From positions 1 to 22,858 of the forward strand of contig NZ_DATNPA010000225.1 of NCBI RefSeq assembly GCF_036703385.1: a stretch of 22,858 bases of DNA, in the 5' to 3' direction. The first letter of the stretch is position 1; each line of letters begins with the position of its first letter. A program made the position numbers and the translations under genes. Below, piece after piece: positions 15,193 to 15,936 of this stretch. This DNA comes from Allocoleopsis sp. GTDB taxonomy: Bacteria; Cyanobacteriota; Cyanobacteriia; Cyanobacteriales; Coleofasciculaceae. The notes beneath the pieces are model-generated. The model had not been told where the DNA came from and did no database searches. It saw only the letters and a list, made by a program, of their open reading frames with translations.

Positions 15193-15936
15193 ATGATGAA
15201 CGCCACTTACAATCCTTACCTTGTCGTCTTTTCCGCATTCATTGCGGTGCTGGCTTCTTATACAGCGCTTGAGCTTTCGAGCCGAGTCACCGCTGCCAAA
15301 GGAGCCACTGGTAAACTCTGGTTGATGGGGGGAGCGATCGCTATGGGAACAGGGATTTGGTCGATGCACTTCATTGCCATGCTGGCTTTTTCCATCCCAC
15401 TATTCATTAGCTATAATCTGGGGATTGTTTTCGTCTCACTGATTGCCGCTATCTTGGCATCTGCACAGGCTCTATTCATCATCGGTCGCCCGAAGCCAAG
15501 TCCAGTGGTTTTACTAGCCGGTAGCAGCATCATGGGGATTGGCATTGCCCTGATGCATTATACCGGTATGGCTGCCATGCAAATGCCCGCGATGGTGCAT
15601 TACAAACCTGGTCTATTTTTGCTCTCGGTTGTGATTGCGATCGTCGTATCGTTCGTTGCTTTAAAACTGTCGATTCAATTTCGGGAAGAGGCTTGGGTGG
15701 GGCGTAGATGGTTAAAATCTGCTACCGCGTGCATTATGGGTGGGGCGGTGCTTTCAATGCATTACACAGGAATGGCGGCAGCCATGTTCAAACCCGATAT
15801 TTCCAAGTTAGTTCAAGCGGCAGGTTTAGACAATTTATCCCTGGCTTATATTGTTTGCCTTTTCACACTTCTCATCCTGAGTTTAACCCTGGCTACTATT
15901 TATATCAATTCTGGGCCTAAAAGTTTGCTGGATTAA
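15193..15936 (+). CDS. standalone MHYT-domain integral membrane protein (3 MHYT repeats, 6-7 TM)
   Basis: Three repeats of the Met-His-Tyr-Thr signature in TM context: WSMHFIAMLAF, ALMHYTGMAAMQMPA, LSMHYTGMAAAMF. The protein is hydrophobic throughout and has no C-terminal output domain. Confidence 0.85.
   Translation: MMNATYNPYLVVFSAFIAVLASYTALELSSRVTAAKGATGKLWLMGGAIAMGTGIWSMHFIAMLAFSIPLFISYNLGIVFVSLIAAILASAQALFIIGRPKPSPVVLLAGSSIMGIGIALMHYTGMAAMQMPAMVHYKPGLFLLSVVIAIVVSFVALKLSIQFREEAWVGRRWLKSATACIMGGAVLSMHYTGMAAAMFKPDISKLVQAAGLDNLSLAYIVCLFTLLILSLTLATIYINSGPKSLLD

Follow-up and report, generated by a model that had tools for sequence, protein, structure and literature searches.

To what does a membrane sensor signal when it carries no output domain of its own? 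MHYT is among the most widespread bacterial membrane sensor domains and, to our knowledge, CoxC is the sole MHYT protein with a proven signal, and many output-less copies have no assigned role. The question is raised here by a stretch of 22,858 nucleotides (hereafter the window) from the cyanobacterium Allocoleopsis sp. (RefSeq assembly GCF_036703385.1, contig NZ_DATNPA010000225.1, positions 1 to 22,858 of the forward strand), in which a gene for a 247-aa MHYT protein (15193..15936, + strand) stands just downstream of a gene for a 984-aa chemoreceptor, i.e. a methyl-accepting chemotaxis protein (MCP; 12143..15097, + strand). The answer we favour, and by a modest measure hold to be probable, is that this MHYT protein is an output-less, copper-dependent gas sensor that signals within the membrane to the upstream MCP. 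What makes the locus valuable is that it gives output-less MHYT proteins a concrete and testable partner, a chemoreceptor.

The MHYT protein

The 247-aa protein, which has an ATG start, matches the Pfam MHYT family (PF03707) with an E value of 4.1e-48 and 161.6 bits (cut-off 21), and the same scan returned no domain besides MHYT, LytTR included. Its three motifs, read from the DNA, lie in the second, fourth and sixth of seven transmembrane (TM) helices and are all on the + strand: M58-H59-F60 in TM2 (15364-15372), M121-H122-Y123-T124 in TM4 (15553-15564) and M189-H190-Y191-T192 in TM6 (15757-15768). In an alignment of 31 family sequences, M58, H59, F60, M121, H122, Y123, H190, Y191 and T192 are invariant. 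An AlphaFold2 model that took 31 family members as input has a mean pLDDT (predicted local distance difference test) of 89.6 and places the seven helices at residues 8-34, 37-65, 76-97, 104-128, 139-164, 172-196 and 214-239. The initial annotation, which had recognized three MHYT repeats in a 247-aa protein and had proposed a topology prediction and a profile search as a check, is thus borne out by seven predicted helices and by a score far over the family threshold. Beyond helix 7, eight residues are left, a cytoplasmic tail without an output domain, and it is because this tail is so short that the protein cannot signal alone.

The published topology of MHYT domains has the N-terminus outside, the motifs close to the outer face of the membrane and the C-terminus inside. 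In the window protein, Lys/Arg-rich loops (residues 35-41, 98-103 and 164-175) are found opposite to the motif-bearing ends of the helices and, by the positive-inside rule, the motifs would be near the outer face and the C-terminus in the cytoplasm, which fits that topology. Sequence and fold searches of the PDB with the protein gave no relative and no fold match with an E value below 0.1; a solved MHYT structure is not available.

A gene of this size could have arisen by decay of a longer gene for an MHYT kinase or cyclase, which is what one might read in its match to the NCBIfam model T2SS_HK, an MHYT histidine-kinase model of which positions 1-233 of 574 are covered, i.e. the sensor part alone. 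However, most of the 120 best homologues have lengths of 237-254 aa and similar end points, and the DNA downstream belongs to a gene that is unrelated and has a ribosome-binding site of its own. Furthermore, the ratio of non-synonymous to synonymous substitution rates (dN/dS) is 0.05-0.15 against four orthologues (a fifth, from locus L089, yielded no estimate), with dS above 1 for most pairs. Such dN/dS values mark a real gene rather than a fragment: the MHYT gene is under strong purifying selection and belongs to a real and old gene family, not to a broken kinase. Homologue lengths, the family alignment and dN/dS together refute a pseudogene or remnant, a reading to which we attach a vanishingly small probability.

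A free-standing MHYT family in cyanobacteria

A protein database search with the MHYT protein returned 5,369 proteins at an E value of 1e-10 or better. Among the best 120 of these (identity at least 52%), MHYT is the sole Pfam domain in 120/120, and every one that comes with an organism name is cyanobacterial. In a neighbour-joining tree, which is a rough guide since it carries no support values, the free-standing cyanobacterial MHYT proteins form one clade, which excludes the MHYT domains found in kinases, in cyclases and in fusions with MCPs. Tandem arrangements were also seen: several kinases and cyclases (P0319, P0324-P0326, P0352 and P0354) have two tandem MHYT domains (5-6 repeats, 258-316 bits), a sensor architecture of which we know of no description. 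That free-standing MHYT proteins exist was already known (PMC11347149). The initial annotation had held them to be less common, which is not so in cyanobacteria, where they are not rare, and its two standalone examples, CoxC and CoxH, have to be withdrawn, both having an MHYT domain plus a LytTR DNA-binding domain (PMC11347149).

Conservation of the MCP–MHYT pair

The adjacency of the two genes, which the initial annotation had proposed to look for in relatives, is indeed kept. In all six contexts sampled at an MHYT identity of 66% or more to the window protein, a gene for an MCP of like architecture lies directly upstream on the same strand, 80-190 bp away, and the genes beyond the pair differ. 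These contexts are, in order of decreasing MHYT identity, L099 (94-95%), L081-83 (88%), L084-86 (78%), L087-88 (76%), L001 (75%) and L089-90 (66%). The L087-88 host, a metagenome-assembled genome (MAG) labelled Waterburya, belongs to an order (Pleurocapsales) different from that of Allocoleopsis (Coleofasciculales), and the MCP of L089-90 is a protein of 1,481 aa with three GAF domains.

As background, about 75 non-cyanobacterial loci with fused MHYT genes were used, out of at least 80 loci returned by a scan with patterns back-translated from the MHYT protein, chiefly MHYTGMAA, which is common to all MHYT proteins. The background is low, with a directly adjacent MCP at two of these approximately 75 loci (L010 from Brevibacillus and L042 from a Chloroflexota MAG), a number not clearly above chance, and at none of four more distant free-standing family members (see below). 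In both cases (L010, 8296-12409; L042, 345-3886) the MCP gene is beside an MHYT-(PAS)-GGDEF-EAL gene on the same strand.

The upstream chemoreceptor

Pfam identifies HAMP (E value 2e-12), GAF and MCPsignal (PF00015, E value 5.5e-31) domains in the 984-aa chemoreceptor. Its hydrophobic segments, at residues 43-67 and 351-372, amount to two membrane helices, and the intervening 283-residue periplasmic part, when searched in isolation, matches dCache_3 with 29 bits (cut-off 25.7). The complete layout is therefore TM1 (43-67), dCache_3 (68-350), TM2 (351-372), HAMP (371-421), GAF (459-598), a second HAMP-like segment (approximately 640-700) and MCPsignal (758-940). Comparison of five MCP sequences showed that TM1 (12269..12343, + strand) is the most conserved stretch of the receptor, with a mean identity of 0.90 to the four orthologues, followed by TM2 (0.75), the signalling domain (0.71), the periplasmic domain (0.68) and the GAF domain (0.48, the lowest). 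On the MHYT side, conservation of helix 7 relative to the clade mean is 1.03 in the MCP-linked clade and 0.68 elsewhere. These values are only suggestive, but they make TM1 of the MCP and TM7 of the MHYT protein candidate contact surfaces in the membrane.

The GAF domain (13517-13936 in the window) has AHH where a bilin-binding domain has its Cys-His site. The receptors of L081 and L088 are also without Cys-His, and the canonical pair is present in one orthologue only, the MCP of L084 (6978-9920), which has ACH. Reading the window MCP as a PixJ-type cyanobacteriochrome is consequently unsupported, the canonical Cys-His of the GAF domain being absent.

The intergenic gap

The gap between the two genes is exactly 95 bp (15098..15192) and, as had been remarked at the outset, contains a hairpin: an imperfect stem of 14 pairs at 15100-15132 on the + strand, right after the MCP stop codon and with no T tract. 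Its folding energy is -12.5 kcal/mol (z -1.9) and 10 of 200 shuffled sequences fold equally well, i.e. the hairpin is real but unremarkable and marginally better than chance. A clear stem follows the MCP stop codon in three of five orthologous loci, but its sequence is not conserved; alignment of the MCP–MHYT intergenic regions likewise revealed no conserved sequence, and the stems vary by locus. A promoter and terminator scan of the 95 bp found no promoter-like site and no terminator-like site on the + strand, and the overall counts in that scan were not above those in shuffled sequence. It is possible that the hairpin marks an mRNA 3' end or affects mRNA stability, or that it partly halts transcription between MCP and MHYT.

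MHYT–MCP fusion proteins

Independent support comes from proteins in which the two modules form a single chain. A search with a chimera that joined the MHYT protein to the conserved signalling-domain tip of the MCP recovered proteins with both PF03707 and PF00015; in these, Pfam assigns MHYT to the N-terminal end and MCPsignal to the C-terminal end. One of these fusions then served as query for an exhaustive search, which, followed by Pfam, yielded at least five clusters (at 50% identity) of MHYT-MCPsignal design: P0243/P0244, of about 603 aa; P0320 and P0423, which have a HAMP domain in addition; P0350; and P0318, a 901-aa MHYT-GAF-PAS-MCPsignal protein from Scytonema hyalinum (MBW4498622.1). 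The likeness of P0318 to the window pair extends over both modules. Its MHYT part aligns with the window protein at 47% identity over the full length (residues 2-239). For the cytoplasmic part, the identity to the window MCP is 41% in the GAF region (MCP residues 423-612) and 51% in the signalling region (640-973), where the 334-aa alignment has no gap. In P0243, the MHYT part is 46% identical to the window protein and the cytoplasmic part 40% identical to the window MCP. MHYT occupies, in these fusions, the place that TM1-dCache-TM2-HAMP has in the window MCP, which we take as direct evidence that an MHYT bundle can drive the outputs of the family of chemoreceptors to which the window MCP belongs. 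We found no paper on MHYT–MCP fusions, which are known as database entries. P0318 has been named PixJ by the Joint Genome Institute (JGI), and it is for this reason that one free-standing MHYT protein is called PixJ by the same source.

Partner or neighbour?

Several points weigh against a partnership between the two proteins. All four of the distant free-standing family members examined (54-58% identity), from Egbenema, the P0118 lineage, Gloeocapsa PCC 7428 and Pseudanabaena PCC 6802, have no adjacent MCP. The MCP pairing is limited to one sub-clade of MHYT proteins, and the free-standing family, although monophyletic, is mostly not beside an MCP, so that the family as a whole must use partners encoded elsewhere, or act alone. 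Ancestry is shared among the six contexts, which limits their independence of each other, and the helix-conservation signals are drawn from five MCP sequences and 11 members of the MHYT clade. The MCP, which has dCache and GAF inputs of its own, does not obviously need a partner, and the hairpin behind its stop codon could end transcription in some cells. Finally, since the order of MCP followed by MHYT is the reverse of that in the fusions, the window pair is not the product of a simple gene fission.

These same facts bear on another explanation, in which MHYT and MCP are mere co-located or co-expressed neighbours, and the MHYT protein acts alone (e.g. by binding copper) or together with a histidine kinase or cyclase encoded elsewhere. 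Beyond the sub-clade, signalling genes are missing from the immediate surroundings of most sampled family members, the family is old as well as monophyletic, and the intergenic sequence is not conserved, all of which speak for this view. What makes us consider it rather unlikely is that the pair has outlasted the complete reshuffling of its flanks, the saturation of dS and even a change in the architecture of the MCP (the three GAF domains in L089), and that fusions to the same MCP family exist. The suggestion of the initial annotation that the MHYT protein modulates the MCP in trans has therefore gained from the conserved pairing and the natural fusions, but it cannot be extended to the family at large, the pairing being confined to one sub-clade.

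Comparison with known systems

The closest analogue in working principle, although not in homology, is the pair formed by a sensory rhodopsin and its Htr transducer. In SRI-HtrI and SRII-HtrII, a seven-helix receptor with no output domain signals, through contacts between membrane helices, to a two-helix transducer of the MCP type (PMC3274258, PMC5292967, PMC13269893). The genes of each pair adjoin one another, probably as an operon, and fusions between receptor and transducer are functional (PMC3274258). The window pair is similar in that a seven-helix protein without output adjoins, in the same orientation, a two-helix MCP. However, the MHYT protein and sensory rhodopsin share no fold (best Foldseek TM-score 0.35, E value above 0.1), the input proposed for the window pair is a gas at a copper site rather than light at a retinal, and the MHYT–MCP complex is putative. 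The MHYT–MCP fusions contain the same two modules as the window pair, but in one chain; unlike them, the window MCP keeps a sensor of its own, and MHYT is encoded separately, behind the MCP gene and not ahead of it.

Among MHYT proteins, the one with a proven signal is CoxC of Afipia carboxidovorans, whose MHYT domain is a copper-dependent carbon monoxide (CO) sensor with O2 as antagonist (PMC11347149). CoxC and CoxH have the membrane sensor domain of the window protein, three MHYT motifs included, and CoxC resembles it further in being encoded beside CO-related genes. Both, however, bear a C-terminal LytTR output, whereas the window protein stops eight residues past TM7. Other MHYT proteins likewise come with attached outputs. 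YkoW of Bacillus subtilis and MHYT histidine kinases of the Slr2098 type were reportedly treated by Galperin et al. in 2001. YkoW, like NbdA and MucR of Pseudomonas aeruginosa, is an MHYT-(PAS)-GGDEF-EAL protein with MHYT as N-terminal membrane input; in these proteins and in Slr2098-type kinases (MHYT kinases adjoin hypX in L101 and L180, see below), the attached outputs act through cyclic di-GMP or phosphotransfer and not through a chemoreceptor. NbdA variants of P. aeruginosa that retain MHYT cut twitching, i.e. type IV pilus-dependent motility, independently of enzymatic activity (bioRxiv 10.64898/2026.03.20.713172).

The link with hypX

Two genes downstream of MHYT, the window encodes a HypX protein of 593 aa (17303..19084, + strand), which the initial annotation had overlooked. 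Its whole length aligns with Aquifex HypX (6J0P; E value 1e-169), and it contains the formyltransferase and crotonase domains and keeps all five catalytic residues (H74, D80, D109, Y425 and E434), which in the Aquifex numbering are His74/Asp80/Asp109 and Tyr416/Glu426 (PMC6802093). HypX is a formyl-tetrahydrofolate decarbonylase that makes CO from formyl-tetrahydrofolate for [NiFe]-hydrogenase (PMC6802093), and it produces this CO under oxic conditions (PMC6802093, PMC12134894). There are no hydrogenase genes on the window contig, and the 8-10 kb around the cyanobacterial hypX loci examined are in every case devoid of hyp, hox and hup genes.

MHYT genes recur beside hypX in cyanobacteria. When metagenomes were scanned with HypX, 80 loci were obtained, three of which have HypX at cyanobacterial-level identity (74-95%), and all three have an MHYT gene, while none of the remaining 77 (identity 63% or less, non-cyanobacterial) has one. 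The arrangement in L099 is that of the window, with one gene between MHYT and hypX. Elsewhere, a free-standing MHYT gene is divergent from hypX in L100 and in L092-94, the P0118 lineage, where the two genes stand back to back and hypX is 75% identical to that of the window, and an 886-aa MHYT-PAS-GAF histidine kinase is encoded 88 bp upstream of hypX in L101. Four named cyanobacterial hypX genes were examined in addition to the scan: that of Coleofasciculus (L180) has an MHYT-PAS-GAF histidine kinase gene 70 bp upstream, and those of Scytonema tolypothrichoides, Pleurocapsa and Stigonema have no MHYT gene nearby. In total, MHYT is beside hypX in five of eight cyanobacterial hypX lineages, in three different arrangements (one intervening gene, divergent free-standing genes, or a kinase gene upstream). 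No paper mentioning both MHYT and HypX was found. The neighbourhood of the MHYT–hypX pair in L092 includes, 3 kb away, a gene on the - strand (11616-14177) for a protein with an ethylene-receptor-type copper site (ETR1_N-PAS-GGDEF-EAL), which is a further type of copper-dependent small-molecule sensor.

Because the MHYT domain of CoxC senses CO, with O2 as antagonist, and HypX makes CO, this association suggests that the signal in question is CO or O2. It could also be given more weight, and the MHYT protein be seen as working with HypX, by binding, sensing or buffering the CO that HypX makes or by reporting O2 or CO to a regulator of hypX, in which case the MCP next door would be a matter of lineage-specific synteny. 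The counts above (five of eight cyanobacterial lineages, none of 77 non-cyanobacterial loci), the CO-sensing MHYT of CoxC and the intact active site of the window HypX are all in line with this scenario. Nevertheless, four of the six contexts (L081, L084, L087 and L089) keep the MCP while hypX is absent from the surrounding 8-10 kb, none is seen on the short L001 contig either, three cyanobacterial hypX loci have no MHYT gene nearby, and the fusions are examples of a direct signalling use of MHYT with this very family of receptors. A primary role with HypX is in our opinion unlikely. The two explanations are not mutually exclusive, and adjacency to hypX may simply indicate the ligand.

A proposed model for gas sensing through the chemoreceptor

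The scenario we favour, of an MHYT sensor signalling to the MCP, could work as follows. By homology with CoxC, the MHYT protein would bind copper close to the membrane's outer face and be responsive to a diatomic gas, namely CO, O2 or nitric oxide (NO). In the Allocoleopsis sub-clade, its partner would most likely be the two-helix MCP encoded 95 bp upstream, and both genes probably lie on one transcript. The MHYT bundle would contact the membrane helices of the MCP, likely through its TM7 and TM1 of the receptor, and the change brought about by gas binding would shift the HAMP-GAF-signalling output of the MCP. A gas input would in this way be added to a receptor that already holds a periplasmic dCache sensor and a GAF domain. 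Cyanobacterial chemotaxis-like systems of the Pix/Pil/Hmp type control pilus-driven motility, and the output of the MCP may steer such a pathway behind pilus-driven gliding.

We found no description, in the searchable literature, of the conserved MHYT–MCP pairing, of the fusion family or of the hypX association, and nothing on MHYT in cyanobacterial chemotaxis. The fusions show that the pairing makes biological sense and, if confirmed, it would represent a bacterial counterpart of the sensory rhodopsin–transducer principle and a first handle on gas-guided gliding in cyanobacterial mats. A bolder idea, which is a long shot, is that mat-forming Coleofasciculaceae use CO, or the CO/O2 balance, as a behavioural signal, with an output-less copper MHYT sensor docked to a chemoreceptor steering gliding and an orphan HypX supplying or tuning the CO. 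Were this true, HypX, a 'hydrogenase maturation' enzyme, would gain a role in signalling, and MHYT, HypX and MCP would constitute a module for the production and perception of a gas.

Other genes of the window

The gene between MHYT and hypX (16026..17099, + strand) has a TTG start preceded by a strong AGGAGG ribosome-binding site and encodes a phycobiliprotein-like protein of 357 aa, whose C-terminal third gives a weak match to PF00502 (26.5 bits, cut-off 22.2), a globin-like fold. Its orthologue is right after MHYT in the two closest lineages, L081-83 (72% identity) and L099 (96%). Rfam and tRNA scans of the whole window returned nothing, and from the empty Rfam scan it follows that no riboswitch is recognized ahead of MCP or HypX.

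A single-domain, CheY-like response regulator of 120 aa (3893..4255, + strand; Response_reg, E value 4e-29) is encoded 8 kb upstream of the MCP–MHYT pair. Its orthologues in L087/88 and L001 (83% and 78% identity) closely follow MHYT on the same strand, and it is possible that this regulator is a further member of the module, displaced in the window by rearrangement. Next to it is a gene (4507-6273, - strand) whose 588-aa product matches no Pfam family and has a hydrophobic segment near its N-terminus; this gene is syntenic with the MCP–MHYT pair in L084 and L087 (72-73% identity). The window looks rearranged because L087 keeps the order MCP-MHYT-regulator-588 aa-PcrA. Between the MCP gene and the block formed by the regulator and the 588-aa gene are two genes on the - strand, one for a TnpB/IS605 OrfB protein with a Cas12f-like TNB domain (6495-7748) and the other for an 892-aa homologue of the eukaryotic Major Vault Protein (7846-10524; Vault repeats, E value 1e-64; MVP shoulder, E value 1e-53). 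An orthologue of the Major Vault Protein is also found upstream of the MCP in L081 (95-2755). At the beginning of the window, again on the - strand, two tandem genes for putative endonucleases of the Uma2 family (337-909 and 1013-1594) are accompanied by a gene for a small HSDR_N_2 protein (1591-1944).

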